In this document: positions 868 through 42,945 of the stretch, in pieces
Position numbering within the stretch: the first letter of the stretch is position 1
Layout: the number at the start of each line of letters is the position of its first letter
Assembly (NCBI GenBank): GCA_001938485.1
Contig: MQRK01227422.1
Coordinates: 1-55,214, forward strand
DNA length: 55,214 nt
Source of the DNA: Girardia tigrina
Lineage: Eukaryota
Direction: 5' to 3'
The notes under the pieces: generated by a model
Told to the model about the DNA's origin: nothing
Databases searched by the model: none
Seen by the model: only the letters and a program-made list of their open reading frames with translations
Made by a program: the position numbers and the translations under genes

Positions 868-3800
868 CTACACTTTGCATAATTTTTTAAGAATTTCCTG
901 TAATAGTTCGTTAAACCTAAAAAGCTTTTCAAATGGTGAACTGCATTTCTCTATAATATCTTTTTCTTCATAATTTCGAATAATATCGTCCAGTTTTTCC
1001 TCGAAATGTTTTGGTTGTCGGCAAGGTTTCACCAAAACTGGTTCTCCATGCGTTTCGATCTTGTTTTTTGTCAGTAACGTCCTTCCAATATCCCATTTGT
1101 CAGCCATAAATATTTAATTAAATTCTGTTAAAAGTTTCATTAGTTGGTTGTCAACTTTGTTTTCAAAGAGCTCTGTTATTCTCCTCAGTCTATCCTCGTC
1201 AGATGGATTGTCTGGTATTACCAATAACTCATTAGTATTTGATGGTTCTCTCTTTAGCTTAATCCTGAATTTGTTCAAGAAATCTATTCTTGCAATCATT
1301 TAAGGATCTATATCTTTGACCACAAAGAATTCCACTGTTTTCTACATTCTTCTAATTATCACTTTAAGTTGAAAAATACCATAGTTTATAAGTTCTGAAT
1401 CATTCACACAATGTATTCGTCTTTTAATTTCTTTGATCTTGACATCTTTCATATCTTTAATTATCTCTGCTTTAATAACGTACCCCCTGTATCTAACAGG
1501 CATTTGACATATTTATTTTTATACAGAACTCTATACTTGTTCGTCCTTTCAATTCTTTATAATTTATGTTAAACGTTGATAATATCAGTAAATCTTCAGC
1601 ATTCTTTTTATCTTTTTCTCATTTTCTATATTCATACTAGCACATATTTTATTGTCTTCTTTATGTTCATTATCTAATCTCCAGAGGAATATTTTCAAAC
1701 GCATCATCAAATATGCAATCACAAACACATTCATACATACAATCAATCATACATCTACATTGAGTTCCTATTGTAGCACACTGATCACTTCTCCCTGTGA
1801 TCGTGCATACTCGTTTCCCTGATTATACCTGAATTTTCTGTTACCCATGGGATATTCCAGTCTTTTGCCATCTTCTCCTCAATACGCTCCTTCAGAATAG
1901 TCCCCTTTCTAGAGTCTTATCTTATATACAATTCATCATCTAGTTCCTCCAGTTCTACTACTGGGTATTTCCTATTCGTGTATATTGGCCGTTCTCTAAA
2001 TCGTTGATTCGAGTAATTTTGCCTATTATTTCATCAATTATTTCCATTATCCCTTATCCATTGATAACACTCCCTAAACCTATTAGGGTTTTCATAAAAC
2101 TGTGTTCTTAAATGCATTTTTCTATTACAATGACTACTATTCACGTTTGGGCACTCTCATCTAACATGCCCTTCTTCGTTACATGCCAAACAGGTAATGA
2201 TGGTGCAAGAGCGGGCGCAGCGATTTTGTGGCTGCGGCACGCCGGCGACGGGGAGCGAACATCTGGTCGGGGGGTCACATTTAAAATTTTCACCTCGAGA
2301 CTCGGATTAATGACGATCGTATCGACTCTCCGTTTGACGACCGCACATTGACGAATCGCGTCATCGATTTCCCGCGAGTTATTCGATCGATTTTCTGTGA
2401 ATTCAATTTCGACTTTCTGTTTCTGCTTTAAATTGATTAAAACTGGATCGGGAAAAAAGAGCGATCCTTGGATGAGTCTATCGACGACAATCGACTTCCA
2501 TAGAAAGCGAAATGCGAACAAACAACCGATCGGCTGTCGGAGATCGGTGCGATAACACAACCAACCGCAATCGATTAATTCTCTCACAATTGCGTGATCG
2601 ATTTCGGAATTTTTGATGCAATTAATCGAACAAAAAGGAACTCTCAAAATCGACAACAAATAATCGGAATTGCTCTTGGAAATCTCCCTCCACTTGGTCA
2701 AAGAAATCGGGTGGAAGTCATTGCCAAATTCATTTTCAAATTCATTCTTCATTTAAAAATATTAACACAACAAAAATATTTATTTCCCTTTAAAAATCGC
2801 CAAAATAATTACAAATTGATCGATTAAAACAATCGATAAAATTTTTTTTCCTCAAAATCAGCAATTTAATAAAAGTTCAAAAGCTCAATTTACTCAAAGA
2901 GCAATTAACACACGCATGATATTTAATCGATTATTAATAATATTGAAAAAAAAAGAAAAACCAATACTAAAAAGTGTCATTTGATATTGCCGATTTTTGA
3001 AGAAAACAAAGATTTAAANNNNNNNNNNNNNNNNNNNNNNNNNNNNNNNNNNNNNNNNNNNNNNNNNNNNNNNNNNNNNNNNNNNNNNNNNNNNNNNNNN
3101 NNNTTGTTGATTTAATCACCTGATTTTCTTATCTATCGCACCCCCTTTTTACGATCAAACAATGGGGATATGCATTGATTTCAGAAGATAATTAACGAGA
3201 GATCGAGCGATTGTTTCGTGATGATCGACTGAAATCGTTGATAAATCGCAATTAGAAACTATTTCCAACATAATTCGTTCGGAAATCGATTGAGTTTTTG
3301 TAGGAGTTTCTGATGTCGATAAATTCAACAGCGTTCAAAATTCTCGTGTGATACCATTGTTTATCGGAATTATTTAAAAAATTTCGATATTTGATTTATT
3401 TAAAATCGTGAAACAGGTAATTTTTCGCTCTTTAATTTCTTCTTGTTTCTTGTTCTTTGAATTTCTCGTTCTGTGGTCTTGGTGTTCTTTTTATATTTTC
3501 TACTGTTCTCCATTCATTTTCTTTTTTTGTTTCATATGCCGCTACAGGAGCGTTTCTTTTCTTTTTATTATATTCGAACATTCCCGTTTGAATGTCTTCA
3601 ATCTCTTCAGATTTCTTGAAACCTCTGACAGCTATTTCTTTCAGCATGTTCTCATCATCTATCATATTAGCGTAGACCAAATTCGATAGTTCTTTTTTAT
3701 ACAACTTTTTCTCAATTAGCTTTTCAATAATTTAATCAGCCTTTCTAAATACTATTGTTTGATCGCTGGATCCAATTCTCATTTCTACCAGTTCTTTCAT

Positions 3801-4190
3801 TAGATCCAGGATAGATTTTTCCTTTGAAAACACTGATCTTAGTTTCTCTTCACATATTTCACCTGCGCTGCTTCATATTTTATTATGACATCCGGAGTCA
3901 TATATGGTGTTGCTAATAAGATTTTCCTCTCCTCTGAAAATCCTATTATCTTCGCATACCTGTTAAAGCTCGTTATGAATGCCTCAACTTTTGTCTCTGA
4001 TCCATCAAATATCTCCGGACCTCTAATGTTCGGAATCACGCGGTCTTGTATCACCATATTAAGAACACCAACATGGGTTTTCGAACTTTTATTTTCAATA
4101 CAATTTGAATTACTTTTTGGAAATCTCTCAGCCAAGCTGAGAGATGGTAATTCGACATCTCTCGTCATTCGACATCGTAATTCGACTTCG
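868..4190 (-). mobile_element. Decayed Ty3/Gypsy LTR retrotransposon (gag, protease region, start of RT), interrupted by an insertion at 2199-3410
   Basis: ORFs 3839-4168 (PEIFDGSETKVEAFITSFNRYAK, gag N-terminus) and 3432-3704. Manual translation of ~2095-2198 gives a zinc knuckle (TCLACNEEGHVR*EC). ORF 868-1107 (WDIGRT..IETHGEPV..P.RQP.HFEEK..IIEKCSSP) is a typical Gypsy pre-RT segment. Confidence 0.85.
2199..3410 (-). pseudogene. Gene-like insert flanked by an 11-bp target-site duplication, inside Gypsy gag
   Basis: AAACAGGTAAT occurs at 2188-2198 and 3411-3421. Removing the insert and one copy restores gag (EIKERKITCLACNEEGH). The insert is CpG-rich, carries a ~185-codon minus-strand frame (2752 down to 2199), and contains an N gap. 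Confidence 0.7.
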
Positions 4191-6126
4191 TTCTAAATTG
4201 ATAAATTTTAGTTAATGTTTTTTAATAAACAATTATTCGAACAAATATTTCATTATTTTTAGATTTTATTTTTAAAGTTCTAATTTTGTAATTTTAATAA
4301 TAATTTTATCTACGTATTAATTTTATTTAAAAAAAGGATTTTATGTAAAGAAAGAACACTTATTTAATTCAAAACTTAGTTAAAAGTTATTTACTTTATT
4401 TAAATTTTTAATATTAAAATTTGAAACGATTTAATATTTTTAAAGTTTTATAAATATCTTATGCTGTACTTTAAAATACAAATTAAACTTGAATAATTAT
4501 TCATCGTGAACATCCAAAATATCAATTTTCCATCTGGGTGGGAGAAACACATTTCCAAATACTAAACTCAACATACCAATTTCAACATACCAAATTTAAA
4601 ATATTCCTCACGTATACGATTCGAGTTTTTTTGGTAAATATCATCTTTAGATCTTACTTTATTAGTTAATTTTTTTCGAGACTGTAACTATGTCGGTAAC
4701 AATGACTAAAATATAAAAAAATATTACAGTTACTTACCAAAGTTAATTTTCATGGATTAAATCCATGGATTTAATCATGGATTAAGTGGTAAAATAACAA
4801 GAGACATACCTAGGGACAGCGACTTCAGCAAAACAGTCGTTTAAATAAAATTTGGTAGTCCTTTTAGAAAAGGTTGTATTTGTCTTTAATATTCGACTAA
4901 AAGCATTAAGTGGTTAATCACATTAATCAGGAGCTATTACATTTTAATAAATACAGATTACCTTGAAATCTATCCATATTTCGCAGATCATGTTAAAGTA
5001 AAGTCGATTTTAAATTGGTCAGTCTGAAATTCTCTGTAATATTTTACGGTAATATTTAAACAGGTTTTCATATAACATATATTGTTCACATAAAAATATT
5101 TTAGTATGAGACCAACCTGATTTTTATTAGATATTTTTACTCGGTCTTTCAGGAAAATTTTGATTTAATTCATTAAAATTATTTTTTATTTATTTATATT
5201 TGAATAATTTATAAACCAATTATTTAAAATAAATTATTTTTTAACAAATAACCATAATCTGACATTGTAATTATTATGATTCTATAATGTTTGATTCAAG
5301 ATTATGATTCATAAATTTACATAAAAGTTTATTAAACTTTTGCTATTTAAAATTTATCTCTGCCATTTTCTAATTTTGTTAAAGAAATATTTAGATTATT
5401 TTATATTTAATTTATAACAAAATTATCATTTTCAAAATAATTCCGTAAAAATATTTAATCAAACTTTAATTTCTTACGAACTTATTTCTTTCTACTTTAT
5501 AAATTTTACCACGTTTTTTTTGTTTTTATGTTACTTAATTCGTATTTTAAAACCTTTAGTAATTATTTTCCTGTTTAAATATATCAACTTTAGTTTTAAA
5601 ATATATTTTTTAACGTTTTTTATTATTTAATTTATTTAATTTTATTAATTAATTAATTATTTAATTTTGTTGGATTTTTAAAAAATCCTTTTTTACTTAT
5701 TTTTAGTTTTATAGACTTTATGTATTTTTTATGTTTTATGTAATACATCGTTAAACTTTTAAATTAAAGAATTTTTTATATTATTTAGCGAATATAAAAT
5801 TCTAATCAACTCCTCATAGTAATTATTATAAATTAATAATAAATGAAAATTTTAGATAAAAGTTTATTTAAAATTATTTAAATCTTTTTTTTTTAATTTA
5901 TAAATTTAAATTCATTGTATATATTTATATAATTATTATATTTTAGTTCCATATATTTGGTTTTCTACAGAAAAAAGAAAATAATATCAAATAAATCACC
6001 AATTAAATAATACTTCATATTATAATCCAATCAAATTCATTTTATTTTATTTTATTTTTAAAAAGAAATTTTCAAATTGACTAAATATTAAAAATTTTGT
6101 TTTGTTTATTTTCTAGCACGAAAAGA

Positions 6127-6982
6127 ATGAAAAGAAAAGAAACGGAAAGTAAATTGTCAAATAAAAAATGTGAAGTAAATACAATTGGGGTGATTGATAA
6201 AAATGCTTTTAACTTATTTTGTGAAATAAGTTCTATAAGAGGTATGCATAAGATCACAAAAGCTCCTACAGTTTTTCTAAAGATTCTTTGGATTGCTTTT
6301 GTGCTGTGTATGACAACAATGTTGTTCCTGGTAACAGGATTGTTAATAAAAGATTATTTAAATTATTATACGGCATGGCATGTCCGAACGAAGTTTGATG
6401 ATGATTCTGAATTTCCAGCTATAACTTTATGTTCCCACAATCCTTTTTCGCTTCACGCCAACGAACTTTGGAAGAAACCTAACGCATTTTCTCCTAACTT
6501 GTTTCGAGAAAGATTAAAGAAGATGGTCATTGATCAAGTAAAGAATTCGAATACAACAAACGAAATGACATTTTTAATGTTTCATGATAAAATTGAAAAT
6601 TATTATTCAAATATAGATTACGAGTATGCTTTTAATATAAGTCATGGTTTCGAAATGCTGAAATACTGTGCAATCGTCTTGGAGGGGTCATTAGTTATGA
6701 CTACAAATTGTGACACCGAAAGTCCAGATGTTATGGTAGAGAAAAAAATATTTTCCCATCATAAATTCTTCAATTGTTGGACATTGCAAAAGAAGTTTAA
6801 TCACAATTCAACAATTTCTACTTTGATAATCTTGGTGTCTCTTACTCCCGCCGCAGATATACCGGAATTGAAGAATGCTTTTCTGATGGACATTTTAGAA
6901 AGAGGAGAAGGATTAAAGTTGGTTATACATGAACCGAATTCGTATCCGGAAATCGAGGAAGAAGGAATAGATGTTCAACCAG
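6127..6982 (+). CDS. DEG/ENaC (amiloride-sensitive / ASIC-like sodium channel) subunit, first large coding exon, 3' partial
   Basis: Hallmarks in ORF 6097-7005: pre-TM1 FCEISSIRG (HG-motif region), TM1 (ILWIAFVLCMTTMLFLVTGLLI), FPAITLCSHNP, FNCWT and GLKLVIHEPNSYP..EGIDVQPG. There is an acceptor ttttctAG at ~6116, an ATG at 6127 and a donor CAG|GT at 6982/6983. Confidence 0.93.
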
Positions 6983-7612
6983 GTTGTTCAGTCCATAAAT
7001 TTTAATAATATTTATGGAAATTTATTAAATTTTAATGTCTTATTTTTTAAATATTACAAATTTTACAATTTTTTTTATCAAAACAATTATTTGAAAATAT
7101 TAAAATTTATTAATTTAAATTAATTAATTCGTAGTGAATAAATTTTTTTTAAATACAAACATAAAATTATTTATTTTTTTTATATTGAAAATAATGTGTT
7201 TTAAAATAATTATAATATAATAATAAATAATAAATATATAATAAATAATAACAAATATTATATCAATTATTTTTTTAGAGATTTTTTACTGTTGACAACA
7301 ATTAAATATATAATAGTGTTTTTACAAAAGAAATCATTTCATTTTAAAATAGAAAAAAAATAGAAGAACAATAAAAAATTGTAAAACAAATCAAATTATT
7401 ATTGATACTAATTATTTTTTTACAATTTTTCTTTTTAATATTTTAAATGAAATTAAGAAATAATTTCCAATTATTAAAAAAAATAAAATAATCTTTACAT
7501 ATTTAAAAACATTTTAGCCTTCACTATTTAAAATAATTATATTTTTTAATGTTTTAAATATTTTTTGGCAATGCCTAAAAATAATTTATTTTAATAGTAT
7601 AGTTATTTGTTA

Positions 7613-11580: not shown

Positions 11581-11646
11581 TTTATTTACCAAATTGAAAT
11601 ATGACGTCCACTCTTTTTTTGTTCATTTGGATCTAAAAACCATTTA

Positions 11647-16203: not shown

Positions 16204-19200
16204 ATGAATAAATAATTTAAATCATTGATGAATTGATTTCAAATTCAAATTGAATTCTGATTAACTGATGATTTCGTTGTCTTTTAATTTTACTTTAATG
16301 ATTTGAAAGTGTGTGTATTCTTTGAAAAGTGTGAGGTTTTGTGTTTGATCCAATGAAATCTATGTATAGGAACGAGGTTGTGTGTCTGCTGTGTATTTTT
16401 GGGGGTTGGTGTGTAATTGTTTGTGTCTAAAAAATGACACAATTTTGAAAAAGAAAAAATTCGAGGCTTTGTCACTTTAAAAATAAAAAAAATTATAAAA
16501 ATTAAACTTTAAAACAATAGTTCTTTTGGTTTACTAATAAATCTATTCAAATTATTATGAAAGACTAATTATTGCTGTCATTCTAAAAACATTATTACGG
16601 AAACCATAAACGAGATTGAAAAACTAATTCTACGGAAAAAATTTGAAAACATCACTAAATCGAATGATCTTGATTCGATAATTGAACGAATTTTTGATCG
16701 ATTTTATAATGAAATTAAATTATTTGCAAATAAATCCGAATTATTAATCGATGATAATCAAAATAGTTCCTCTGGTTTTTCTCGAAAGGAATTGTTGAAT
16801 AACGTTACAGCTTCAATTTGATCGGATCGAATTTTAACTCGCGTTTACGAAATTCATTCGATCAATAGTTTAATGATTGATCTCCGCAACACTGATTATT
16901 AATTTTTTTTATATTTGATATAACTTAATGAATGTTCGTAACAAATACATTTTAAGATTCTTTTTAATTATAGTTCTCTTGATTATACCTTTGTCAAGAA
17001 GAATTTTCAAAAAATGATAACTGATTTTTATAATGGGGCTTGAGGTGCCGACTGGGGACTGAGTGGCGGCGGTAAGCACCTCTTAATTGTGCGGGAAGAT
17101 GCCGAATCGGGAAATCGAACTGTCGATTGAGTGGGTGTCATGAACCGGTCGAGCCCGATTGCCACAAGTCGGCGAGTCGATATTGGTGTGTGGGTGTATT
17201 ATTTTGTTGTGTTTGATGTATGCGTGCAGTTGTTTTATTGTGTTAAAAACGTGGTGTTAAAAGAAATATTTATTGACAATAGACAAATCATAAATAATAA
17301 TAGTGATCTAAATTTTCAATCGATCGTTGATTCGATTCCCAAACATTATAAGCATATCACATGTCGATTTGTTGAAACCTTTCAAGACATCTCAGTTTAA
17401 CGGATTCTAATTTGAAACATATCTGACCGATTGCACCAGAATCTCGTTTAGCATCCATTATGTGGTTGTTTATGTGTCATTAGAATTTCAACATCAACCA
17501 CGTTGAGAATAAATATTCTGTAATTCATCCACGACCTAAAGACACCCCATCAGCGCTGCAATGGCGCGGCTGCACATATGTAAAGGTTCGGTGGTTATGG
17601 TTTTTTCTTAATTTTGAGATTTTTTTCATCTTACATTGTTTCCCATACAAGTAATAATACTACAACACTCAGTATTGCAGTGTTCCCTGGGTTTTCTTAT
17701 AGAAAACAATTAATTAAACACCAAAAAACAAAACATTATTTTTTATACTTAGATATAAAATAATTATCTTACAAGTATTTTTCACAAAACAACATTGCGT
17801 TTTATATTAATATTTATTACCAAATTATCGTTTTGGAGAGAACATTCATTCATGAATTATTTAAATTTTATTGGTTCTTTAATATTTTTTATTATTTTTT
17901 ATTATTTTTTAAATTATCTTTTATATTGTTATAATTTAGAATTTTAATGATAATATGAAACTGGAGATATAGTTTAATTTAGTTTTTCAAACGTAAGTAA
18001 TTATTTACAATATTCTAAACATAAAAAATATTTTCTTAATGAAAGTCTGCGGAGATGATAGAATGATATAAATGATTGTCTCAACCTCGTACACCCTACG
18101 TTAATGTCAATCATGAACGAAACTAAAGAAATAGAACTAAAAAATATATATTCTATGTTTAAAAAAACATAAATATTTTAATTATTTAATATTTTGATTT
18201 TACTTCTAATTTTTTTATCATTCATTTTATAATTTCATTCGTTTAATATATAAAAGACATTATTTAACTAATTTACAATTAATTGATAATTATTAATTAT
18301 TCGATTCTTTTTAGTCAATTTCAGGAGGAGAAATTAAAATATCACAACCTATATTCATTAATCATGAATAAAATTCTAATGTACGAGTACCATCTTTTTA
18401 TCAATAAAAGACCGAATTCTAATAAAAGTGTGGTTTTACTTTGCGTCATTTTTTCCAGACATTGTGAAAAAAAGGCTAACTCTAAAAAGAGACTTTTCTT
18501 TTCTTAATTTTTTATTTATGATAGATAAGTTCATCATATATGTTGGTTATTGTAGTAGTCAGCTACTACTATCATATATATATATATATATATATATGTA
18601 AATAATTATTATTGATTCAATCAAGAATAATGAATTAAATAATTATAAGGTTGCATTTATTCGTTCTTTCTTCGGAAAATCAGTCATAACATAGAAATAA
18701 CGTCAAATTTATCGCTTTTGATGTTTTGAATTAAAATTTCAAGACATTGGCAATATTCATTGTGACCCACACTACAATGTTAATGAAATTCTCAGTCATA
18801 TATCGTTATCTCATTGGACAACAACCATCAAATTAAGTTGAGAGTTTTGATAATGCTGTTTAAAGTGCAGCGATTTCGAACTTGGCATAACTTATGGATG
18901 CACACTATCGCAGAAATCCAAATTACATTTCTAACCCTTTTAACTCTAACGATTCGAATGTACAATTATTTGCAAGTTAACTTCGACTATAGTTCTTCAT
19001 TGTAAAACTTTGAGAAAGAAGTCAAAGAATTAATTGATAATTTCCAACAACAGAGCATGGTGTGACATCATATGTCGAAATAATACAATTATATTATTCC
19101 TATTCAATGCCTAAGTATTCTGGACAATTTGGAATCCGCTGATTTTAGTTGCTTTGGAAAAATCTACAAGCTGAGTTCCCCATTGCTTTTCTGTGACGCA

Positions 19201-24015: not shown

Positions 24016-24289
24016 GAAGTTGCGATATGTTCAACCAGCGATACATAGTTCCGGAGTCTTATGTTACCGAGGCAGTTCTGGACTACATCTTTGAACGCGT
24101 GCCACCCCATTAGCTACGCTCCTTGTAACAGTCTATGAAACTCTTTGTCGCTGAGAACTTTCCTAATATTTGGTAAACTGAAATTCCTTCATTAATTTGC
24201 CATCACTGATACGTAGACACAGTCTTCTTGGTTTTTGATTATAATTAAAATATTTTTATTAAAATTTTTATTAAATGATTTTTGGGTTT

Positions 24290-24460
24290 TAATCGGAAAC
24301 TTTGATTATAATTATGAAAAAAGTAACTACTGAAACACTTATAATTAAGTTTTTTTAATTTTATAAGCCGTATAAATTGAATTAAATACAGAACTGATGA
24401 TGCCAATAAAAGCAAAACATATTTTCCTTAAATAAACATTTTTAATGGTGTTTTTGTGTT
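24290..24460 (+). mobile_element. Penelope-like pLTR relic with a decayed hammerhead
   Basis: AATTAAATACAGAA-CTGATGA-TGCCAATAAAAGC-AAAAC-ATATT (24394 onward), with a downstream tail similar to the 38.3-kb pLTR. Confidence 0.6.
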
Positions 24461-26114
24461 TTATTTTTATTAAGTGTTTTTTTAATAAAAAAAATGGAAA
24501 ATCTCTAGAAACTTTCAATTCATTGGTTTTTTTAATAAAGTTATTAATTTTCTATTAATATATTTTTCGTATTCAAGGGGGGGGGGATAATTCAATTCGT
24601 TTCTAAATGTATTCAGTGAATTCAATTTTTCTATTTGATCATATAATGCCATTTAAATCTTCCATCTAATCTTAATCTACTAAAAAATATACTCAGAGAA
24701 TAATGAATTGAAATCAATCTAAATAAATTACTAGGATTTTTTTAAAGTAAAATGTAGATGCAGCTTCAGTGTCTTAAACATTATGGGCCTGCTAAATTCT
24801 GAAAGGATTTTAACTTTTAATTCTTTAGCTCAAAGAAAATTTAACAAAAAGAAATGATTGTTAAATACCATTAATTTTTGTTTGTATACCTTTTAAACGA
24901 TACAAATGTTTAGTCCTCAACCTTTCAATGTTTTAAGAATAAAATCATCCCATAGCCATTGTATAGGCCTTCAGCACTGGCAATAGAAGTATTCTTAAGA
25001 ACTCTAAGATTCTCTAAGGAGTCCATATCAGCATGAATAACAATTGATAACACTGCATATTCGTTCTTGTTGTCGACAATTATGAGTTTAACATTATTCA
25101 ACCTTTCTTCTTAAAGGATGACATTGGACTTGAAACTAACAATTACATTAAGAAACAGAGGGACAACATAAAATTTGAATGAACAGAGTAGTTGGAAGCA
25201 AACAATAAGTGTTCTATGAAAGCATGGCAACAGCAAAAAGTTCCTAAAATTTACGCGGAGCTGTATAACATTATTGGTATTTTAACGTGAGGCCACCCTC
25301 GTAGTAAGAAGGTTCAAATACAAGACCTATAACATAATATATGTTCACTGTTTATAAAATAGATTACTTCAATAGAAAGTAATCGTCAAGACCTATTCTT
25401 CTTTCTTAAGCCTGTCTTGAGAAATTTTTGCGATAAATAATCTTTTAAATAAATTTCTTGTCTCTATTTTTATCTCTATTGGCAAACTACTCGTTTTTTA
25501 TTAATATTCATCCACTTTACTGATGAGCCTTTCTACGGATTTTAACGATGATTTTGTCTTGTGCCTCCCCCAGCACCACTAATTATGATTTCCGCCTACT
25601 TATATACTTTATATAAGTCATATGTCTTATACTTCACCCTCCGACTACCAGCATTCAATGGATGTGAAGTAATTGACCTCCTCATATAACTGATTCACTC
25701 CTTATGAGAATGATTGAATGATAGAAGCAGCTCGTTTAGCACATTCAAATCAAAGTTATCACCATTCCTTTTTTGCTCTTTTATACTATTTGGCTCATCC
25801 ATATTACGTATAGAGCCCACCGAAATGTATTATCATTCTATTCTATCCGGTTTAGTTAGCGATCCCTTGATACATGCAATCTCTTTAGAAGGACCATTGC
25901 GTCAAATAATATTTGACGTTCTATATTGAACATATGATTGCAATGCTGCTGATCTTCTTCGGTTAGACCTGAAAACTGGTTGTCTAATGCCTAAGAAATG
26001 TTGCGTTCAAAGTTGATTATATTTTGCGTAACAATTCGTTCAAGTCTGTCTTACATTTTTATTGATAAATGTATTTATATATTCTATTATCGTCTGAAAT
26101 TTCCTTTCAATAAT

Positions 26115-26880
26115 TCAACAATCTGTATGCATCTCTATTGGCTCTCCAAATTTTAAAGTCATTTTGTCATTATTGTACGTTTTAAAATAACTAATGACAG
26201 AATGTCGGTAGCTCTGAGGATGCGATCCAGTGTTGGTGGGTTCTCGGGTCGTGAGGTGATACATAATTGTAAAAGCATCACTGTGAAAAAACTCGGTCTC
26301 ATTGCCCACCGTGAACGATCGAATATCGCCGACAATCGCCTCCAACACCCTCACTGTATTACGAGAGCATTTAATTTCCATTTCCAGTTCGACTGATTCA
26401 ATTTAAAATTCGTTTTACTGAAGTTTTCCTTCAATCGTATTCAAATATTCAGAGTTGAACACAGAAAATACAGCTATAGTGGTGAAATATTTGGAGGAAC
26501 AAAACAGATAGAATTTCGGTTTATTAAGATACTCGTAGAGTTCATTTGTTAGTGAGACTTGAGCGCTAGCGAGACTATCAGATTTCGTTTTATCAACCAC
26601 GTTTAAATGTCGTCACAGTTATTTTAAAACATGACAACCCGAATCTATAACGTGTTTCATTTTCTATTTCAGATACTCGACATCTTTGATATTAGAGAAA
26701 ATGATATCGAGTCCAAGAGAGAACATGATATGATTGTCGTTGGTCGAGCTGATAAGCTGACTCAACTGACCAGACTCATTGACATTGTGCAATTCTCTCC
26801 ACATTTGTCAATGTTTTTCGGTGTATATAAATACATATTCATTTCTAATGATTTTATTCTCTTAGAGTTTCAAAAAAATG
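26115..26880 (-). pseudogene. Long unidentified reading frame interrupted only by in-frame stops
   Basis: ORFs 26415-26600 and 26115-26381 are in the same frame, which continues upstream (NKIIRNEYVFIYTEKH*QMWRELHNVNESG...). About six stops and no apparent frameshift. Confidence 0.55.
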
Positions 26881-26924
26881 ACACAAATAACTTTATTTTC
26901 AATTCAAATCACTGTTCCGGATTG

Positions 26925-26953
<29 letters not shown>

Positions 26954-26956
<3 letters not shown>

Positions 26957-27532
26957 TATGCCGAATTTGTGCAATTGCCGAATTCACTAATTATATGAAA
27001 AATATTCAATTTAATATGAAATTTTCTAAATTAAAAATGAAAGATTATGTACTTATTATGAAAAATATCAATTTAATATGAAAATGGGTATTTAATATGA
27101 ATTAATATTAATTTTACATGAAAAAATCAATATTTTATGAAAAAAATTATTTTAATATAAAAAAATGAATTTAATACGAAAAATATGTATTTAATATGAA
27201 AAATATAAATATATTATGAATAAAAATCTTAATTTATTATGCAAAATAGACTCCAAATGTTAAATTTTATTTATAGTTAATTATACTTCTTCCTTGGTGG
27301 TAAGCTGAATTGCAAACATTTGTATTTTAAAAATTTTTTCTTATTAAATTTATATTTATCATATTAAATTGATATTATTTTCGTTTTAAACACAATTTTC
27401 TTATTAAATCGATATTTTTTCAAATTAAATATTAATATCAATTTCACAATTGAATTAAAAAAATTTTTAAAAAATTGCCAAGTTCGTGAATTGAGTTCGT
27501 GAATTTGTCAATTACACAAATTCGACATAACA
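26954..27532. mobile_element. MITE with ~35-bp TIRs and an AT-rich, internally repetitive body
   Basis: TGTTATGCCGAATTTGTGCAATTGCCGAATTCAC versus GTGAATTTGTCAATTACACAAATTCGACATAACA. The TTTAATATGAAA repeats switch orientation mid-element. A solo end is at ~39024-39059. Confidence 0.8.
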
Positions 27533-28102
27533 TAATACAAAACCGCTCTGTTTATCTTTATTACTTAAACAAAAACTGATTTTTCCAGAACAATATAGTT
27601 ATTTTTTTTCAATTACAGTTTTAAAACAACTTAATATATATATTAACAACATCACAATTTGAATGCAAACATTTATTTACAACACAAACAGATTCTTCAC
27701 AACAATTTTCAGTGGTCATCCTTCTTTGATTAATATAGTTTTTGATTAAAAATTTAAATATGAAAAAATTAATGAATGGGNNNNNNNNNNNNNNNNNNNN
27801 NNNNNNNNNNNNNNNNNNNNNNNNNNNNNNNNNNNNNNNNNNNNNNNNNNNNNNNNNNNNNNNNNNNNNNNNNNNNTTTCATTAGATTCAAATAATTAAT
27901 CAAATAACATATCAATCCCATTTGGGTAGGAGAGTCACAAATCTAAACAGCATACAAACAACAAACTTACAACATTCACAATTATCCCTCACAATATATT
28001 AAGTTTTTTTAAAACTGTAATTGAAAAAAAATAACTATGTTGTTCTGGAAAAATCAGTTTTTGTTTAAGTAATAAAGATAAACAGAGTGGTTTTGTATTA
28101 TG
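27531..28102. repeat. ~110-bp inverted repeat pair flanking an N gap
   Basis: 27531-~27640 (CATAATACAAAACCGCTCTGTTTATC...) is the near-perfect reverse complement of ~27995-28102. Confidence 0.85.
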
Positions 28103-28369
28103 ATTTTTTTTGCGATATCGTGTTATAAGTGAATATGCTATTGTCGGGTCGTTGTGTTTGCAAATAATTCACCGTAACGGAATTTCCAGTTGATATTTGT
28201 TCGATCAATTAATTAATTAAGTTCGGTTAATTAATTATAAACAAATGGCCATTTTTGTGATACCATTCAAATTATGTGATAAAGCTTAAATTGAATTTGA
28301 TCGATTATCGGGCATCTGAAAAACTCGATGGTTAGCGTTGCTACTACCTACTGAAATAATTTTAAAATA

Positions 28370-29372
28370 TTTAAACCACTAAAATCTTATTTTCTTTCGA
28401 CAAATAAATGTCCAACTATTTTACAAAAAACTTATTTTCGGACGAGCATGATGAAATTTGGTTACCGTTTTTTCACAATCATTATTATTCTCTCAATCCA
28501 TACAGAGATTCGAAGGTGAAAAAATGACGTTAATGGAAATTTCTTCCGAAATTATTAACTTGATTTGCAAATTCAAAGATAGTATGTCTTAATTTATTCC
28601 TATTGTTGAAAAATCTGCAATAAAAAAATTCTAAGGATTATTCAAAGATGGAGATCTTTTTTCCTCAATTTATTAATTTTTACTCCAATTGCGTTTCTTA
28701 TTCAGAAAAATGAAGTACATAATTTGATACACAAGAAACTTTATCATGGATTATGTTAAGAAATGTAATCAAATGGGATAATATGGATGAGAGCATTTCG
28801 TTTGCTCAAAAGTATCTTCAGGAAGAAGAATTATCCGTAAATTATTTATTCGACGAAATTTCATATCGAAAACGATAAGCTACTTCTGAAAAAAATCAGA
28901 ACAGAGCGTTTGTTTTCTCTTATTAATGATATGTGGACACCTGAGAAATCCATTCTAAAAGTGGACACATTGAAAGCAAAAGTTATTTTAAGTATAGTAT
29001 TTCAAAAAATCTTGTGAAGAATTTACGAAAATATTTTGAAGACAAGTGCATGCTGCAGGAAAATATTAATTTGAAAAATCTTGTTTGTAAAAATGTTAAT
29101 TATATTTCTGTATATTCGTATTACAAAATAAATTTAAAATTTTCTTAATATGATATTATAAATAAAAAATATAATAAAATAATTAGAAATTATATTTTGC
29201 ATCTATATGTTATTTATTTTATCCATTATTAAAAGGGATTATTATTAATATATATGTATATTTAGCACATTAAAATATTGTACTAAAATATATTCACGTA
29301 AAAAAATTGTATTTTTTAATTTTAAATTTTTTTGGTGTCCCGGTTTGGGATTGAGAACATCTATTCACCCTA
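28370..29372 (+). mobile_element. hAT (Blackjack-like) transposon, 3' remnant
   Basis: TERLFSLINDMWTPEKSILKVDTLKAK (~28900-28985) resembles the hAT dimerisation domain. The right terminus is TGTCCCGGTTTGGGA..ATCTATTCACCCTA. Confidence 0.75.
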
Positions 29373-29379
29373 TTCATGG

Positions 29380-31200: not shown

Positions 31201-33103
31201 TGGACAAAGTACATTAATCTCTTGTTTGGCTTTTGCAAAACTCGCAAATTGAAAAAAAAGGTTGTGAAATTAATGATTTTTCATTATCGCTTTTTCTGAA
31301 TTTTTCCGAAAGCAATTGATTCATGAAAATGTTTCATCATAGTAAGCGTTGCCATGTAAGTTACGTTCACATTGTTTGCCATATTCAAACTATAATTCAT
31401 TATTATTAAATTTTTAATTACTTTTAAAATTAATTTGATTAAAGATTTTTTAATGGAAAAACAATTTAAAATACTTTATAAATAAATATTATTGCACAAT
31501 TAAAGACAAAACATTTTCGTTTTTGAATTCTTGGATATATATATTTTTCGGTATTTCGCAACTTGTATTTTTAAGAAATTTATATTGAAACATTTTTAAT
31601 ATCAAAAAATGAAATCTAAATTAAAAAAAGTTAATTACTATTATGTATGAAAGATTAAATTTGTAAGTCTAATTTAACGGAATTATTTTAAAATTAAAAA
31701 TTTGTCTCTAATTGACGTTTATGTCTTTAATCATGATTTTTTATCAATTCTTTCACCGATAAAAAATCGATGCAAAATATTTTAAATCGACAGATCGCGA
31801 TACCCGTTATGAAGGCGGTCGGCCTGTAAAACTCTATGAAAGTCTTGATCCGTATGGGATCATTAAAATTTATATGTTCATTGTTGAGAAAGGTTCGACT
31901 TAAAAGGAAAATAATAATCTGATAGGAAATGAATTGTGTTAGTTACATCGATATCCGTAACGCATGTTAAATGAATTTGTTAATTATAAAAATTGTTTAT
32001 TTTTATGATTGTTGTTATTATTTAGAAAACATGTAAATTTTTACACATTTGTTTTTTTTACATGAAAAAAATATGTTGTTTAAAATATATAAAAAAACGG
32101 TAATGCAGTAGATAATTATTAAATCAATAAAAAATATTCAGTCGTTATCGTTATTTAGTCGTTAATATTTATTTACCGCTATATCTAAAACGATAACAAT
32201 CATAAACGAAATTTCAATTAATTTTTCCTCTTCAATTCCTAATTTAATAATCATTTCGTCGATCTCTAATATTCAAAATAATTTTGTTTTAGTACCAAAA
32301 CTTTTTTTTAACTTCTTTTAATTTCAATGAATTTTAAATTTATTTTATTTATCCCCGAAATATTTTTTTGTTGAAATAAAATATTTATTCTCAATGACTT
32401 TTAATATTAATTTGAAAATTATAATTATTCTACTTCCATTATAAATTTGTTAAAAATAAAAAAAATATTTAATTGAACATTAATTTTTAAATATTTAATT
32501 TAATTAGTGAAATAAGAATTAACTATCTCCTACTGTAATATCTCCTGTTGATTTTATTGTGAATAAGTTGATGTATGACACTTGATACCGCCACAATTTA
32601 TGCCGACACTTAATCCCTGTAACAGTTAATACATGTGACAGATAATCCCGCGATATTTAATATCAATATATTTAAATTCGCAGAAAAGCACCAAAAAAAA
32701 TGAAATTTATAATAAAAAATGAAAATAATTATTGAATTTATTTTAATCTAATAAGGAAATTTACAAAAAAAATAAAAATATATTATATATTAAAATATAA
32801 GGAACTAAATAAGTATAATATAAGAACTAAATCAAATATTAGGTACTAAATAAGTTAATACAAAATTTTTATAATATCAAAATTGAAATTTATCTCCCAA
32901 AATAATTTTAAAAACAAATGATAATGAATTTTGATATAAAGAGTTTTTAAAATAAAAAACAAACTTAATAAGTTTAGAATAAAATACTATAAAAAAAATT
33001 TGAAATATAAATATTAAAATTAACAATTTAAAAAAAGTAATAAATAAATAATAAAATGAAGTAACAATAATAATAAATTTTATAATACATTACTTTTACG
33101 TAT

Positions 33104-35796
33104 CTCTCCACAACTAAAGCTCTCCACAAAAACCAAAACAAAACATCATAGAGCGCTTTTCGATCTTAAGCAACTGAAGGATATTAAAATTAGGGACAAA
33201 TTTCAGAGTGAACTGTCATCAAAATCCGTCCCTTGCTGCTACTATAAGACCAGCAGCCACAAAAGATCTGTGACGAGTTCACAAACATTATCCCAGATAC
33301 TACCGAAAGCATTCTGGGAAAAAGACGAAAGACGAAGAAACCATGGGTTAATAGAAAGGTATTGTAATGCTGTGATAGACGACGTCAACTGAGAAGCAAA
33401 AGAAATAACGGCGAAGAGTATATAAAAGATTACAGGAAGGTGAACAAGGAAGTTCAGAGACTACTGAGGAAGGCCAAAGAGGATTGGGCGAAGAACAAGC
33501 AAAATTGATAGAAAGTAGTTTTGAAATAAACAATTCTAGAGAAGCATCCAAGACAATTAAGAAACTGACCGAGTCAGGAAGAAGACAAATAAATGTAATT
33601 GAAGATCAAGATGGAAACTTACTTACAAAAAGTACAGAGATGGAAAGATTACTGTTGCGAATTATACAACTTTAAAGCAGATGTCAACAGGAGCGTTATC
33701 TCACAAGATGTTGAAACAAATGGAGATGACGAAGTTCGTGAATGCGAAATTTTAAGATCTGAAGTAGAGGCTGCCATAAAAGGTTTGAAGAGGAACAAAA
33801 GCCCAGGAATGAACAACATCAGCGCGGAACTAATTCAGAATTGAAGGCGATAATACAGTGACTATTCTCCATGTAATAAGCAACAAAATTTTAAAAAGTG
33901 GAGTTTGGCCCTCACAATGGAGTGAATATATCCTCATTCCAATACCGAAGAAAGCAAATAGTTAAAAGTGCAGCGACTTTAGAACGATTAGTTTGATCAG
34001 TCACGCATCAAAGGTTATGTTGAAAGTGTTACAAAGAAGATACACACCGAAAGTGGAGCAAGTTCTTAGCGAGATGCAGGCAGGCTTCAGAAGGGACCGC
34101 AGCACTATGGTGCAGATAACCAACTTAAGACTGATTTGTGAGAAAACAAGAGACCCCAAACGAATAATTTGCATAACTTTATAGATTTCAAAAAAGCCTT
34201 TGATATGATGTGACATGAAGCACTATGGCACACAATGAATAAACACAACATAGGAAAACATATCACGAAAATTATTAAGAGCCTTTATGAAGACGCAAAG
34301 ACAAAAGTGTTGACTAGTTTAGCGACTGGTTTAAATCATCAGTAGGAGTAAAACAAGGTTGCATTCTTTCACCAACATTGTTCAACCTTTTTCTTGAGAG
34401 AATTGTTATGGAAGCTATGAGGGGTTAATTTAAATTTTCATCTCGCCAGAATAATTTATTATTTTTTTAATTTAAATGTTAAAATATTTTAATGTTAATA
34501 TGCTTTTAAATATTTTAAAAAATTAAAAATGATATAATAAAAGAAAATCATAAAAAATTAAATATCTATTTAAAAATAAAAAATATCTTTTTAATGTATC
34601 TATTAAATATCTTAAAATTAAAAATGATAAGAAAACCATTAAATATTAAATATTTATTTATAAATAAAAATGTTTTTACAGTCATAACAATTTATATATG
34701 TTAATATAAGTTATGAAACGATTTTAAATAAATTTTAAAATAAATTTTTAGTTTTAATGTGAAATGTATTTAATAAATTTGCAAGATTTTAAAAATTGAA
34801 TAGAAAAGAATTTAATAGATTAATATGTTGCGAGATAATTAAATTAACAGACAGATTTGTTTAAATATGTGAATTGTTGTTATATTAATAAATTTTGGTG
34901 TTAAAAATGAATTCAGATATTGATGTTGCAACCACTACTCACAGAAACAATATAGGATGTTGGAATAAGCTGCGGAGGAACAAAAATAACCGACCTACTA
35001 TTTGCTGATGACATAGACCTAATTGGCAAAGAGGAGGCAGAGATTCAGGAACATACGAACAGATTACACAAAGCGTCAAACAAATTTGGAATGAAAATCA
35101 ACAGACAAAAAAGCAAAGTAATTGTTTCAGGAAACCATAACAACGAGGTTAATCTAGAGATTTTCATTGAAGGGGAGAAGCTGGAACAAGTTAAGAGTTT
35201 CAAATATTTAGGCTATATTATCAAAGAGAATGGGGGAAGCGAAGAAGAAATCAGAAGCCGGATTGGTATATCAACAAGCGCAATGATTAAACTTAGCACA
35301 GTTTTTAACCTCAAAAAATCCATCTCAAAAGCATATTAAAGATCACTAAGGCTATTGTCTGGGCAACACTCCTCTATGGATGCTAGAGTTGGACAATAAA
35401 TCAGAAGAGTATGGATAGACTTAAGGCGTTTGAAATGAAGTGCTACAGGAGAATGCTGAAGATCACGTGGAAAGAAAAGAAGACAAATGACTTTGTGTTT
35501 GGAGGAGAGTGACAGTAATACTAGGTAAAAGACCGGAATCAATAGAAGAGAGCATCAAGAGATGGAAGCTAAAATTCTACGGTCATCAAATAAAAAACAA
35601 GCACTAGCAAAGGTTATGATTGAGGGAAAAGTGGAAGGAGAAAGACAAAGAGGCAATGGATGGACTATTTAAAAGAATGAACTGGACTGAGTATGGAATA
35701 TCTGAGAAAAGAAACTACAAATAGAAAGATGTGGCGAAGGCTTGTTTATAATTGGGTGCACCCACGGCCCAACGGCTAAGGTCAAAAGAAGAAGAC
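33104..35796 (+). mobile_element. 5'-truncated RTE-clade LINE with an 8-bp TSD, split by an AT-rich insertion
   Basis: TTACGTAT at 33096-33103 and 35797-35804, and a (GAA)n 3' tail. RT motifs KSPGMNNISAELI, ISHASKVML, QAGFR, DFKKAFD, GVKQGCILSPTLFN, LLFADD (35001-35012) and FKYLG. Many stops and frameshifts. Confidence 0.95.
34419..34940. mobile_element. AT-rich insertion within the RTE RT domain
   Basis: The RT reading frame stops at ..MEAM and resumes ..NNIG.GISCGG. The ends are weakly inverted (GAGGGGTT / AACCACTACTC). Confidence 0.6.
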
Positions 35797-38153: not shown

Positions 38154-38269
38154 ACTACATTACTTAATATTCAAAATTGGCAAAGTTAGGCCGCCTCATT
38201 TTTTTCTAATCTTTAAGCTTTGCCAATAATATCCATTGAAATCATGAAACAATTATTATTTACTGATTA

Positions 38270-38305
<36 letters not shown>

Positions 38306-38308
<3 letters not shown>

Positions 38309-38946
38309 TAACAAACACCATTTTAAAAGTTTTTTATTTCTCAAAATATGTTTCGCCATTACGGCATCATCAGTTGTGAAGTAAATTTCAAATTACAAGT
38401 CATTTATATGGCACATTGACTATTACACAATTAATCTTTTTTTAATTAATATTAAAAGATTTTAACATGATTGGATAATTCACTTTGAACATTTAAGTAT
38501 GTTTAAAATGCTTTATTAATAATGCCTCAGTGACTATCATCTCATGATATTCCTACTATTCCTACTCATTTGGGTTTGTTCAGCTATTCTAGTGCGGAGA
38601 TGACGATTTGTTTCTCCAATGTACAAGGATTCACACTTGTGACATTTAAATTGATATACTAGATTAGCTTGGACACCCGATGGAGTTTTTGATTTATTTG
38701 AGAAATATCTCGATAGTTTATTAGTTATAAAGATCACCCGCAAATTAAAACCTGAAGGAACCTTTTTCATCAGACCTTTCCTCAAATCAGACGCACCTTC
38801 AGAAAATGGTAATTTTAAATTTATTGTTTTTATTACATTACTACTATCATTATTTATAATGTTTTCATTTTTATTATTAGATGATGCCGTAATGGCGAAA
38901 CATGTTTTGAGAAATAAAAAACTTTTAAAATGGCGTTTGTTATTCA
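38306..38946 (-). mobile_element. 5'-truncated Penelope-like element: GIY-YIG endonuclease end, pLTR and an inverted partial pLTR, inserted in (TA)n
   Basis: ORF 38537-38947 contains NLVYQFKCHKCESLYIGETNRHLRTRIAEQ. 38306-38371 and 38880-38946 are inverted copies of each other. Flanked by TA runs. Confidence 0.92.
38338..38380 (-). ncRNA. Minimal type I hammerhead ribozyme (Penelope pLTR)
   Basis: Minus strand reads UUCACAA-CUGAUGA-UGCCGUAAUGGC-GAAAC-AUAUU-UUGAGAA, giving the catalytic core, stem II and stem I (one mismatch). The inverted copy retains the palindromic ACAUGU in stem III. Confidence 0.85.
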
Positions 38947-41254
38947 TATATATATATACATATGAAATTAATAATTTTGCATTTTACATAGACTTTTAAA
39001 ACAATTTTTAATTTTCCCTTGTTTGTGAATTCGACAATTTCACAAATTCAGAATAACATATATATCATGCTGTGGCGATTCGGAATGTCAATGATCAAAA
39101 AAATTAATTAAACTTAAAATTTGTAATCAAAAATTAAATTTTGTATTAAAATAAAAACAAAATAAATTGCGAACATTACAAAAATAATAAATGATGTTTG
39201 ACATTTTTTATCAATAAATTTTAATTGATGTACAATCGCTTTTCCTTTTTTCCACACAACTGCCAATTCGCAAACGATGCAATGGGACCTTTCACCGCTG
39301 ATTGGTTAACCAATTAGAACGAGTTTTCACAATTTTCTTTCTTCATATGACAACACACCAGTCTGGCTCTCTCCTTTAATAAAAATAATAATTACTCGTT
39401 ACACATACTGGCTGAAAATTAAAATGACTCGATAAGTCCATCGACTAAAATGTCAAACGACAGGCAACAGTCCGAAAAAAGACATCTTTTGTGTTCGATT
39501 ATTTTAAAATTCTTTTTTTATATAAATTATTTTATATCTTATTTAATTATTTTCTTTTTTTAATTTTTACCTTTAAATGTTAATCATTTATCTTTATTTT
39601 ATTTAATCTTTTTAAATTATTTTTCTTTTAGTTTGTAATTATGTAATTTATTTTCTTTTAAATTTAATTTGAAACATATCAAATATATATTAAAAAAGGA
39701 GAATTAAAGCAATAAAAAATCAGAGATAAATTTCAGTGATGGTATAGATCATTTTGATCATTCAATGGTATAGATCATATATTTTCTCGATTGGAATTTT
39801 TATGACTTTAATAAAAAAAATAAATTATAAATATAATATATTTTCACGTTAATTCAAGAAAACTTCATAAATATAATCTAAATCCAAATTTTGTTCGTAT
39901 ATCAACATAAAATTGCTATTTGAATAACAAAATATTTTTTAATGAAAAACTCAATAAGATTATAACTTATTATTTTATCAATTAAAGAAAAATAATAAAT
40001 AATTATATATATATATATTTAGCCTAAATAATGTAATAATAATACAATTTTAATTAATTTATATTAAAATATGAAATAATATATGAAATTATTTTTAAAT
40101 ATTTTATTATCTTGAATTTATCTTATGATCTCATTTTTTTATAAAATTTACTATTGTTGACTGAGAGTAATAAAGAATTAATTGTTTCACTGAAAAAATG
40201 ATATTCTTTTGAATATTGAAACGAAGGATTTTTTTTATAAAAATAAAAACAAAATAATCAACAATTAACATCTGCCAACATTTACTTTTCAAGAGTCACT
40301 TTTTATTATATTACTTTTTATCAAAACAAAATTTGTTTTTCTTTTATAAAATAAAAGAATGTTTATCTAATAATATTCATATTTAGCAAAATATATTTTT
40401 AATTAAGAAAAAAAATAATAATTAAATCATAATAATTAATTATTTAATTAATTCAAAAGAATTTTTAATTCTTCAAAAATTAAATCTTATTTTCAAGTCT
40501 TATGATAGAAAAACTCGGTTTTTTAATAGAAACTGAGATAATTAAGAGAAAAGAACATCCTCTTGACCTAAAAGTTTCTTTAACTTGGATTTAATTAATG
40601 TTGTATCAAACGTGAAGCAAAAGAAAACTGAGAATAAATAATTATTTCTTTTCCAATGAAAAAAGCCCTACGATATTAATTGTCTTCATATGGTGAGCCT
40701 AGATTTAATCAGTGACTATTTTATCCAACGTCTGGGTTTTGGTTTGTTAATGAATGAGCAGAAATTATAAACTTTATAGGAGTTTTTAGAAATGTCTTAA
40801 TCAATTGAAAATAATCAGTAAAAATATACTTTCATGTTAAAAAAGCACAAAAAAATCTATTTTTTAATATTTTATGGTGCATTTCATATTCTCATTAAAA
40901 TAATTAAAAAATAAATTTTAATTAAAAAAAGTCTCGAAAACCGAGATGATCTAATTCCTATAGGCAAACTAAATTGATCTAAAATTTGATAAAATTCATT
41001 AATGATATTTTTACATGAAAGGAATTTTGATCCTAAATTATTTGACTTGAAAATATTTTACAATATATAATTTATTTTAATTTCTATTTTCATTAAATAA
41101 ATACTTTTTTTATTTCATTTATATTTTACAAAAAATAGATAAATTATAAAAATATTTTATGAAATAAATTATAATTTTTTGTAATAATTCTTGTTAATAA
41201 ATTGAAAATTACTGTTATTTTGATCTCGTGATCACTGGGACAAGACACCTTACT

Positions 41255-41628
41255 GACATGTTTATCACTGCTGATACACTGCCTGCCGTTTCTTTACCTC
41301 AGTAGAATCTTTCGCCTTATTGCAGTTGGTAAGACTGATCTCAAGAGCCGATCAAAAATCATCGTACAGCTCGTCGAGTCATCCTGACTTCCAATAAACC
41401 TTTCCGCGCCAATAGAAGGCCTTGAGCTAGCGTGCCCCTTGCACAGCACTACCGAGCAGTTATCCACGGCCGGAGCAAATGTGTGCTTCCGTAACAGACA
41501 TTTTGCAACAGCCGATCGCACCCCCAATTTCATCAACCCTGTACTTGTGTACCCATAAGAGGCTAAACTCCCATACACTCAGATCAGTCTCAGTCCAACT
41601 TCATAGTTCATCATCGTCACTCTCAATC
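41255..41628 (-). pseudogene. TPR-domain fragment of the FKBP/cyclophilin-40 co-chaperone type
   Basis: MMNYEVGLRLI*...KLGVRSAVAKCLLRKHTFAPAVDNCSVVLCK / frameshift / LKAFYWRGKVYWKSG*LDELYDDF*SALEISLTN..KAKDSTEVKKRQ matches the three-TPR pattern. Confidence 0.7.
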
Positions 41629-42139
41629 TATTTAATTTTAATTATTCGTTCCCCTTCCCTAGATAATGATCGTCCAATTGACATACATACTTGTCATTCT
41701 ATCTCATCAACGGCGCTTTCTCCAGTCGATTTATCGTCAGGAAAAATAGTATCAAGTCCAATTTTTAATATTTATTGTTGTGTTCACTAAATCGGATCAT
41801 CAGCAGCAACCAATTAAGAGTTTTTTTTCAGGTGATATGTAATTCAATTTTTTGATTTTTAATTTTGAAAATATTTCTTAATTGGATTTGCGACCCCTGA
41901 AATTTTTGAGATTAGAAAAATTCAAACGAGCATTACAAAAAATTCTAATACAATTAACAATTAAAAAAATTATAATTATCGAAAAAACTTTAAATGAATT
42001 AATATTGGTAATTGTTTTAATAAATACATTTTTTTATCGCGGTCTTTAAATTTGTTTTCTTTCGTAATTAAATATTTGAAACCATTCTAATAATAAGAAG
42101 GCCACTGTTTCAACAAGCGCGATTTTTAAAGAAGTCGAG

Positions 42140-42945
42140 ATGGACAACTCTCAGTTCTCCGAAATGCTTGGAGCGGTCGATAAATTTTTTTCTCACCGAG
42201 AAATCACCGAAGACGACATCAAATCGCTTCAGGAGAATATTAACACGAATAATATTTTTTCAAATCATTCCAATGAGAATTTCATCAGAAATTGTCAAAT
42301 CTCTCTTCCGATTCTCCATCAACCGACGTTTCCATTCACCGCGAATTCCGCGAAAAGGTTGTCGTATTTAACGAATGGCAGTCCGATAGTCGGGACGGAG
42401 TTTTTGTCCGATTGCTGCTCGTCGACATCGATCGTTTCTTCCTCAATCAATAACGGCCACAATTCCAATAACAATCGAAAAATAATCACAGCCAGATCGA
42501 ATTCGAAATATTTGACGTCGAAAAAGGAAAAGCCGAAGAACTATCGGAATTGTCGTCGTTCCCGGTGAATTGCTATATGAATATCGGAGTGGTGGATTTG
42601 TCGTTGAGTTTCTCGGGGCCTCTACCAATCGCTCCGATTAACACCGGTAACCACAGCAACAACAACAATCAGAATCCAGTGAAATTCGTGTCCAATAACA
42701 ACAACAACTCGATAATCACCGCCAATAATCATTCGCTCATTCAAAAATCGTCGAATAACAACAGCAACTATCAGAACAACAATCACCACCAAAACGGATT
42801 CTGTCACGCGGGCGGCAAATCAAACGTGATCGGGACGGACGCGATCATTTACGCGACCGATATCGGTGACTCTGGTCACATCATTTATTATCGCGAATCG
42901 TGCCTCTTTGCTAACGCTCCTCATCGATACACACCTCTTGATTAG
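42140..42945 (+). CDS. Probable exon or gene of unknown function, Asn/Ser-rich, with one apparent frameshift
   Basis: ORFs 42140-42568 and 42550-42945 join if one A is added to the A5 run at 42478-42482 (..NNRKNNHSQIEFEIFDVEKGKAEELSELSSFPVNCY..). CpG-rich codons and no other disruption. Confidence 0.6.

Follow-up and report, generated by a model that had tools for sequence, protein, structure and literature searches.

A young chimeric insertion in Girardia tigrina DNA joins the front of a TEDC1-like gene to a 121-nt terminal module found behind other gene fronts

Described systems that move host-gene fragments

There is so far only a partial explanation of how animals lacking L1-type poly(A) recognition retropose their mRNAs. 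Chimeras made by LINE elements are a known class. In the LINE-1/mRNA 5' chimeras, first exons of unrelated genes are found in sense orientation 5' of a mobile 3' part, with one duplication of 14–17 bp (PMC13174262; this and the other sources cited here are compared within the limits of excerpts). The insert at 2199–3410 of our window, by which we mean the whole stretch of 55,214 nt that was analysed, shows the same order of a gene front in sense followed by a mobile 3' part, and a single duplication. However, those chimeras end in an autonomous L1 that is nearly full-length and has poly(A), whereas the 3' part here is 121 nt long, non-coding and without poly(A) (PMC13174262). The MINE chimeric retrogenes of Magnaporthe are similar in that a cellular RNA is fused in sense to the 3' part of a retroelement, with direct repeats of 10–20 bp and in a non-mammalian host, but there one full-length RNA is joined to a variably truncated LINE, and here many truncated fronts of putative mRNA origin are joined to one nearly fixed tail (PMC2104539). 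Tailless retropseudogenes resemble the insert as 3'-truncated RNA copies with a duplication and no poly(A); unlike it, they have no shared 3' module and are reportedly L1-dependent (PMC5322556).

Penelope trans-mobilisation in Adineta offers another parallel, as a short cis repeat is enough to move host genes there, with duplications of 8–10 bp; in that case, two or three repeats surround a cargo with retained introns, whereas a single module is present here (PMC3846280). Pack-TIR/Pack-MULE elements (PMC8277862) and LTR-mediated retrocopies (PMC5131818) also place host-gene fragments on mobile elements in animals, but in both the cargo has element sequence on each side, while the insert has it at one end only and the LTR element around it is no more than the target. 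The RTE-flanked duplications of Schistosoma serve as a further comparison (PMC3434034).

When the features of these systems were looked for at the locus, a direct repeat in the 10–20 bp range of LINE-made chimeric retrocopies was found around the whole chimera (11 bp, at 2188 and 3411), and none was found at the second module locus, L001. The 5' part corresponds to a cellular gene, presumably by way of its transcript, and has the same orientation as the 3' part, an orientation that is biased by the search. The insert has no poly(A) or A-rich tail, and its 3' part showed no LINE or SINE identity in Rfam, in a tRNA search or within the window. Among the longest inverted repeats and self-matches, no pair flanked the cargo as in Pack-TIR/Pack-MULE elements, and the at least two terminal repeats framing the cargo of Penelope were not found, one module copy being present in the window and one in L001. 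Discontinuous LTR sequence on both sides, as in LTR-mediated retrocopies, was also absent, and L001 has other flanks. Helitron capture leaves no target duplication and has a CTRR 3' end; the insert has a duplication and another end sequence. The insert works like the LINE-1/mRNA chimeras and MINE, the closest of these systems, except that it has no tail of their kind and that no family is assigned to its 3' part. On our best reading, the very short and fixed tail without poly(A) is what differs here from the known class. In the literature listings searched, a shared tail this short was not described; it may be listed in a transposon library as the end of a SINE or LINE, or in supplementary repeat catalogues.

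The insert at 2199–3410 and its terminal module

The window has 28% GC and five N gaps and is crowded with decayed mobile elements. Its open reading frames contain pieces of reverse transcriptase, RNase H, integrase, DDE transposase and GIY-YIG by Pfam, and MITEs were seen by self-match. One DEG/ENaC frame of 306 codons is intact (6085–7005; Pfam E 2e-25) and is a mark of animal DNA; no further downstream exons of this ASC gene were recognised by Pfam in the scanned parts, which included 51 ORFs, 46 taken from a list of 125. The features of the insert and its target are the following.

2141–2198, minus strand: target, CCHC zinc knuckle of the gag of a decayed LTR element (zf-CCHC E 0.013–0.038, below the cut-off); the reading resumes directly past the insert
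2188–2198, no strand: first copy of the 11-bp target-site duplication, identical to 3411–3421
2199–2319, minus strand: terminal module, 121 nt, 58% GC, 3' end of the insert, common to other chimeras (DNA of L001, translation of proteins P0002–P0004)
2320–2752, minus strand: cargo, putative front of the coding sequence of a TEDC1-like gene, without stops, sharing the reading frame of the module and matching protein P0001
2753–3410, minus strand: 5' part of the insert, with an AT-rich stretch, an 85-N gap (3019–3103) and a CpG-rich stretch by composition, without Pfam match
3411–3421, no strand: second copy of the target-site duplication, matching the first
3422–4192, minus strand: target, upstream gag-like part of the same LTR element, with an ORF at 3839–4192; gag-like by eye, without Pfam match; its reading enters the duplication

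By our analysis, 2199–3410 is a young insertion: it is flanked by an exact target-site duplication of 11 bp and splits a gag-like reading. Among random boundary pairs, an 11-bp repeat was found in 0 of 400 in tight windows and in 11 of 400 with windows of ±60. As the ends may have been picked by the first-pass annotation from the repeat itself, independent support for them was needed. It is given by the target, in which both flanks read the same tripeptide into the CCHC knuckle at the duplication, and by the module in L001, which ends at the same base as the 3' end of the insert. The flanks are continuous except for the duplicated 11 bp, and the zinc-knuckle reading is interrupted exactly at the repeat. 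The insert holds an open frame of 184 codons with no stops (0 of 2000 shuffles reached 180), while the target is rich in stops, so the insert is the younger of the two. A search of the Atlas with 2144–2752 at 0.9 gave no match. The 5' part of the TEDC1-like gene and the module were inserted as one unit, the duplication lying outside both.

The module is 96.7% identical to L001:1475–1596 over 122 nt and has the same 3' end. The sequence upstream of it in L001 differs from that of the window, and the remaining matches between L001 and the window are of low complexity only. A protein search over 1.84 billion representatives returned five proteins at E 0.001 (P0001–P0005), and a second search, limited to 101–322 residues, returned the same three of four candidates. 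The translation of the module ends P0002, P0003 and P0004, each of which is a single sequence on one contig. Two of the four module copies were seen as DNA and the others as protein. All four share one 3' end, for two of them at residue level, and in three the 5' boundaries lie no more than about a codon apart; P0004, whose match is limited to its last 30 residues, is shorter or variant. P0005 (E 6.5e-4) was dropped as repetitive. Among metagenome contigs, 3 of 36 pattern matches passed, and two of these, L002 and L003, were dismissed as chance (66% and 59% GC; E 2e-4 and 4e-4; without similarity to the window at the DNA level). Viral and prokaryote contigs, scanned for exact matches, returned nothing, and one of 63 viral-contig candidates, at 50% identity, was set aside as weak. 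It might be asked whether the module comes from an adapter, a vector or an error of assembly, as it is GC-rich against the background and present in assemblies from different sources. We consider this very improbable: the copies differ by substitution (4 of 122 nt; 75–97% identity at the protein level), and the copy in the window borders a duplication within another element.

The cargoes in front of the module are different. That of the insert matches residues 7–144 of P0001 (34% identity over 146 aa, E 2e-22), and P0001 matches Pfam TEDC1 at 83–222 (E 1e-11). The cargo itself has no Pfam match, and its TEDC1-like label is therefore transitive, via P0001. P0002, P0003 and P0004 match the insert frame only over its last 30–46 residues, and their upstream parts are mutually unrelated. 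The cargo of P0003 is sideroflexin (Pfam positions 2–226 of 319, E 4e-77) and that of P0004 is MAP65/PRC1 (Pfam MAP65 2–135 of 477, E 1e-6; PRC1 E 3e-4). P0002, encoded in L001, matches no Pfam family; its cargo also had no PDB match, and a single-sequence model reached a pLDDT of 42. By eye only, it resembles Nup88. All three identified cargoes begin at the N-terminus of their family, end early and are uninterrupted over 125–213 residues, which fits an origin from mRNA. For the TEDC1-like, sideroflexin and MAP65 fronts, the orientation of the cargo is that of the module. The sense, in-frame joins of P0002–P0004 were favoured by the protein search that found those three of the four chimeras. 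The module is reused with four different cargoes and, as judged from these comparisons, the same mobile tail carries different host-gene fronts.

The nearly fixed boundaries on both sides are what a complete small element would have, and the module could be an independent SINE or MITE lying in first exons, with the truncated gene and the element moved or cut later. This is unlikely, since the duplication encloses cargo and module together and no return to the host gene is seen behind the module: not in the window, not in L001, where the flank beyond has 17% GC, and not in the 30 residues that follow it in P0003. Searches for the identity of the module pointed to no small RNA. Rfam gave 0 matches at E 1, ARAGORN found no tRNA in the window or in L001 and hence no tRNA-related SINE head, and the folding energy was not unusual (z-score 0.06). 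The idea of a tRNA, an Rfam RNA or a stable fold was dropped after these three negative searches. The single match in the window also means that the module has no counterpart in the window's LINE 3' end or Penelope-like repeat, and no longer element ending in it was found.

Origin of the chimera

We propose, at a probability of about 55%, that such insertions are chimeras made by retrotransposition, in which the front of an mRNA is followed by the module, which would serve a non-LTR retroelement system as its cis element at the 3' terminus. The leading part of a host transcript would be joined to the module by a jump of the reverse transcriptase at the 5' end of the module, or by splicing or ligation before copying. 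Non-LTR enzymes are known to perform end-to-end template jumping. Reverse transcription of the chimeric RNA would then be primed at the target nick, starting from the fixed 3' end of the module, and the chimera would be integrated with the 11-bp duplication and without poly(A). The insertion, its duplication, the order of cargo then module and the reuse of the module with four cargoes are seen directly; from these we infer an RNA intermediate, a joining step and an enzyme. In favour of the proposal, the layout equals that of published LINE chimeras, as far as the excerpts describe it (PMC2104539, PMC13174262). Against it stand the DNA 5' of the cargo, which is unassigned, in part AT-rich and, at about 660 nt including the 85-N gap, long for a 5' UTR, the failure to find a parent gene from which intron loss could be read, the lack of a duplication around the L001 chimera, whose 5' end may lie off the contig, and the absence of poly(A): the module abuts the duplication directly, with no A-rich microsatellite and no clear tandem tail found at its 3' end.

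The upstream DNA is also the point at which a serious rival must be weighed. The module could instead terminate an element that takes up genomic DNA or unspliced RNA, either a Pack-type DNA transposon with unlike ends or a Penelope terminal repeat acting in trans, and the cargo would then include promoter and intron DNA. Long AT-rich stretches lie upstream of the cargo in both the window and L001, and a duplication of 9–11 bp fits Mutator. Penelope repeats are reported to move intron-containing genes with duplications of 8–10 bp and to capture unique spacers before the 3' repeat, according to the excerpts of that source (PMC3846280). On the other side, the insert has no second module copy, inverted or direct, and no terminal inverted repeat among the window's longest inverted repeats or self-matches; L001 shares nothing with it but the module; and the identified cargoes are uninterrupted coding fronts. 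We therefore regard capture at the DNA level by an element with unlike ends as doubtful, while keeping it as the serious rival of the retrotransposed chimera.

As a more tentative extension of the retrotransposition proposal, the module may be a dedicated carrier RNA of 121 nt and not a broken LINE end. It would be joined at a fixed point to truncated fronts of numerous unlike mRNAs and would license their reverse transcription and insertion, as a general shuttle of gene fragments in a genome whose retroelements skip poly(A). If this is true, it could account for most of the pseudogene scraps in the lineage. If a 121-nt element suffices for trans-mobilisation, it would be a compact model of template recognition by reverse transcriptase. 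A short fixed tail behind four unrelated gene fronts is moreover a searchable tag, by which copy count, junction rule and driving enzyme are testable in one genome.

The other six islands

The first-pass annotation had listed seven islands, 2199–3410 among them, as intronless, host-gene-like scraps without motifs of transposable elements, and had attributed them, as a hypothesis, to one frequent process that pastes pieces of mRNA or foreign DNA, for example by trans-mobilisation through RTE or Penelope elements or by RNA-templated repair. The remaining six, with their neighbouring features, are given below.

16561–16902, plus strand: CpG-rich island, no Pfam match in six frames; 16561–16818 without Atlas match at 0.9
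17030–17190, no strand: GC-rich island (56%), no Pfam match in six frames, unrelated to the module
19611–20621, minus strand: LINE remnant, 72.8% identical to 33112–34137, which has RVT_1 matches
20856–21206, minus strand: decayed mitofusin GTPase N-terminal piece (MFN2 construct 77–197, E 5e-12; Dynamin_N E 7.6e-5)
24016–24230, minus strand: transposase-like remnant by translation only, abutting a MITE at 23611–24015
26118–26402, minus strand: open frame continuing the O-GlcNAcase piece, no solved-structure match better than E 1.3
26418–26822, minus strand: decayed O-GlcNAcase catalytic-domain piece (human OGA 100–242, E 2e-23; NAGidase E 1.9e-9)
41283–41432, minus strand: decayed TPR-protein piece within 41255–41628; only designed consensus TPR proteins match

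These six look like a mixture of transposon remains, unassigned sequence and pseudogene pieces of greater age; the seven islands are not one class. Four of the seven proved to be host-gene-like (mitofusin, O-GlcNAcase, TPR and the TEDC1-like front), while 16561–16902 and 17030–17190 were unmatched and 24016–24230 is transposase-like. The three matched pieces among the six have no introns in the matched stretch, and the intronless character of the islands holds to that extent; the human mitofusin gene has introns in the matching region. The alignment of 17030–17190 with the module gave a local score of 20 against a shuffle maximum of 27. The MITE next to the transposase-like remnant has a second copy at 46600–47014 (88% identical), and the remnant itself, which we take to read as a Chapaev/CMC type transposase, had no Pfam match and none among 8 candidates of a word-based homologue search. 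The absence of transposable-element motifs is contradicted by 2199–3410, which ends in a mobile module, and probably by this remnant. In the O-GlcNAcase piece, 244 codons contain 7 stops, and one of its two deletions of 4 residues removes the catalytic aspartates; a word-based homologue search with this piece found 0 of 470 candidates. An internal deletion in this copy was suspected and dropped, as the second half (26118–26402) did not match OGA. The TPR piece, which bears out the earlier label by consensus matches only, has 8 stops in 131 codons. The word content of 20900–27000 was present in two DNA read runs at 0.75 and 0.53; 17 rows with small shares were not counted as evidence.

The mitofusin piece, correctly named before at 21006–21215, is longer than was then supposed. 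A LINE remnant in the same orientation, presumably RTE-like, lies 235 nt downstream of it, and this order of a gene front followed by a retroelement, together with three more host-gene pieces free of introns, could be taken to favour a single capture process behind all seven islands. Such a process is improbable: the module was absent from the other six in a window-wide search, none has a convincing boundary duplication, two islands are without identity and one is transposase-like. The mitofusin piece and the LINE remnant could be a chimera, or the LINE may simply have inserted into an older pseudogene; no mitofusin continuation was found beyond the remnant. In 3 of 12 further boundary tests over kilobase ranges, AT-rich repeats of 11–13 nt appeared and were treated as chance. 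By eye, the mitofusin piece extends to about 21440, with changes of frame.

As one common phenomenon, the cluster is not supported, and frequent pasting, foreign DNA and RNA-templated repair found no support either. What stands of the proposed pasting process is one member of the seven, with its exact duplication, split target and module shared with three chimeras; it reveals a real, repeatable capture unit. The lack of poly(A) was confirmed for all islands, the longest A/T run near any end being at most 8 nt. The compositional contrast was borne out in part, as six of the seven islands exceed both 500-bp flanks in CpG and four do so in GC; 21006–21215 exceeds them in neither, with 0.95 CpG per 100 nt (14th percentile). 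Richness in CpG is not specific to these islands. The LTR-element stretch at 48088–51000 has 4.05 CpG per 100 nt, and two islands absent from the earlier list, 42080–42945 and 53250–53440, reach 8–9 CpG per 100 nt.

The DEG/ENaC frame and further CpG-rich islands

Features outside the islands listed in the first-pass annotation were as follows.

6085-7005 (+), intact DEG/ENaC (ASC) frame of 306 codons, whose match to the ASC profile runs from position 1 to 254 (of 455)
42080-42945 (+), coding-like island that is rich in Asn and strongly enriched in CpG, with two overlapping frames of 162 and 157 codons
17260-17440, 28100-28960, 31740-31960 and 53250-53440, additional CpG-rich islands

Since no exon was detected downstream of the DEG/ENaC frame within the scanned parts of the window, a large share of the window may be intronic, or the frame may be one more gene front. 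Pfam and PDB searches with the Asn-rich island returned no match, and those of the four additional islands that were scanned gave no family.

Mobile elements in the window

33103-35795 (+), 5'-truncated LINE with RT matches
38288-38963, Penelope-like remnant, weak GIY-YIG match between inverted arms
23611-24015 and 46600-47014, a MITE present twice, with 88% identity between the copies
27531-28102 and 44866-44969, other inverted-repeat elements
48088-51000 and 51200-52480 (-), pol regions of LTR elements, both decayed

The LINE ends 3' in a short AAG-repeat in place of poly(A), has an apparent 8-bp repeat on its flanks as judged by eye, and contains an AT-rich insert at about 34430-34955. The Penelope-like remnant, whose inverted arms measure 84 nt (96%), adjoins a TA microsatellite. 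The CpG richness of the pol region 48088-51000 equals that of several of the previously listed islands.

Decayed gene copies and the L001 locus

Small in-frame deletions were observed in several decayed gene copies, namely the O-GlcNAcase piece 26418-26822 (two, of 4 residues each), the TEDC1-like cargo 2320-2752 (one of 17 residues against the database protein P0001) and the truncated sideroflexin piece of P0003; the single-frame alignment is partly responsible for these deletions. At L001, a separate locus carrying the module behind unrelated cargo, inspection by eye suggested a putative Penelope-like RT piece (1-200, -) upstream of the open cargo frame (751-1473, +; 241 codons), itself a candidate for likeness to the Nup88 front.
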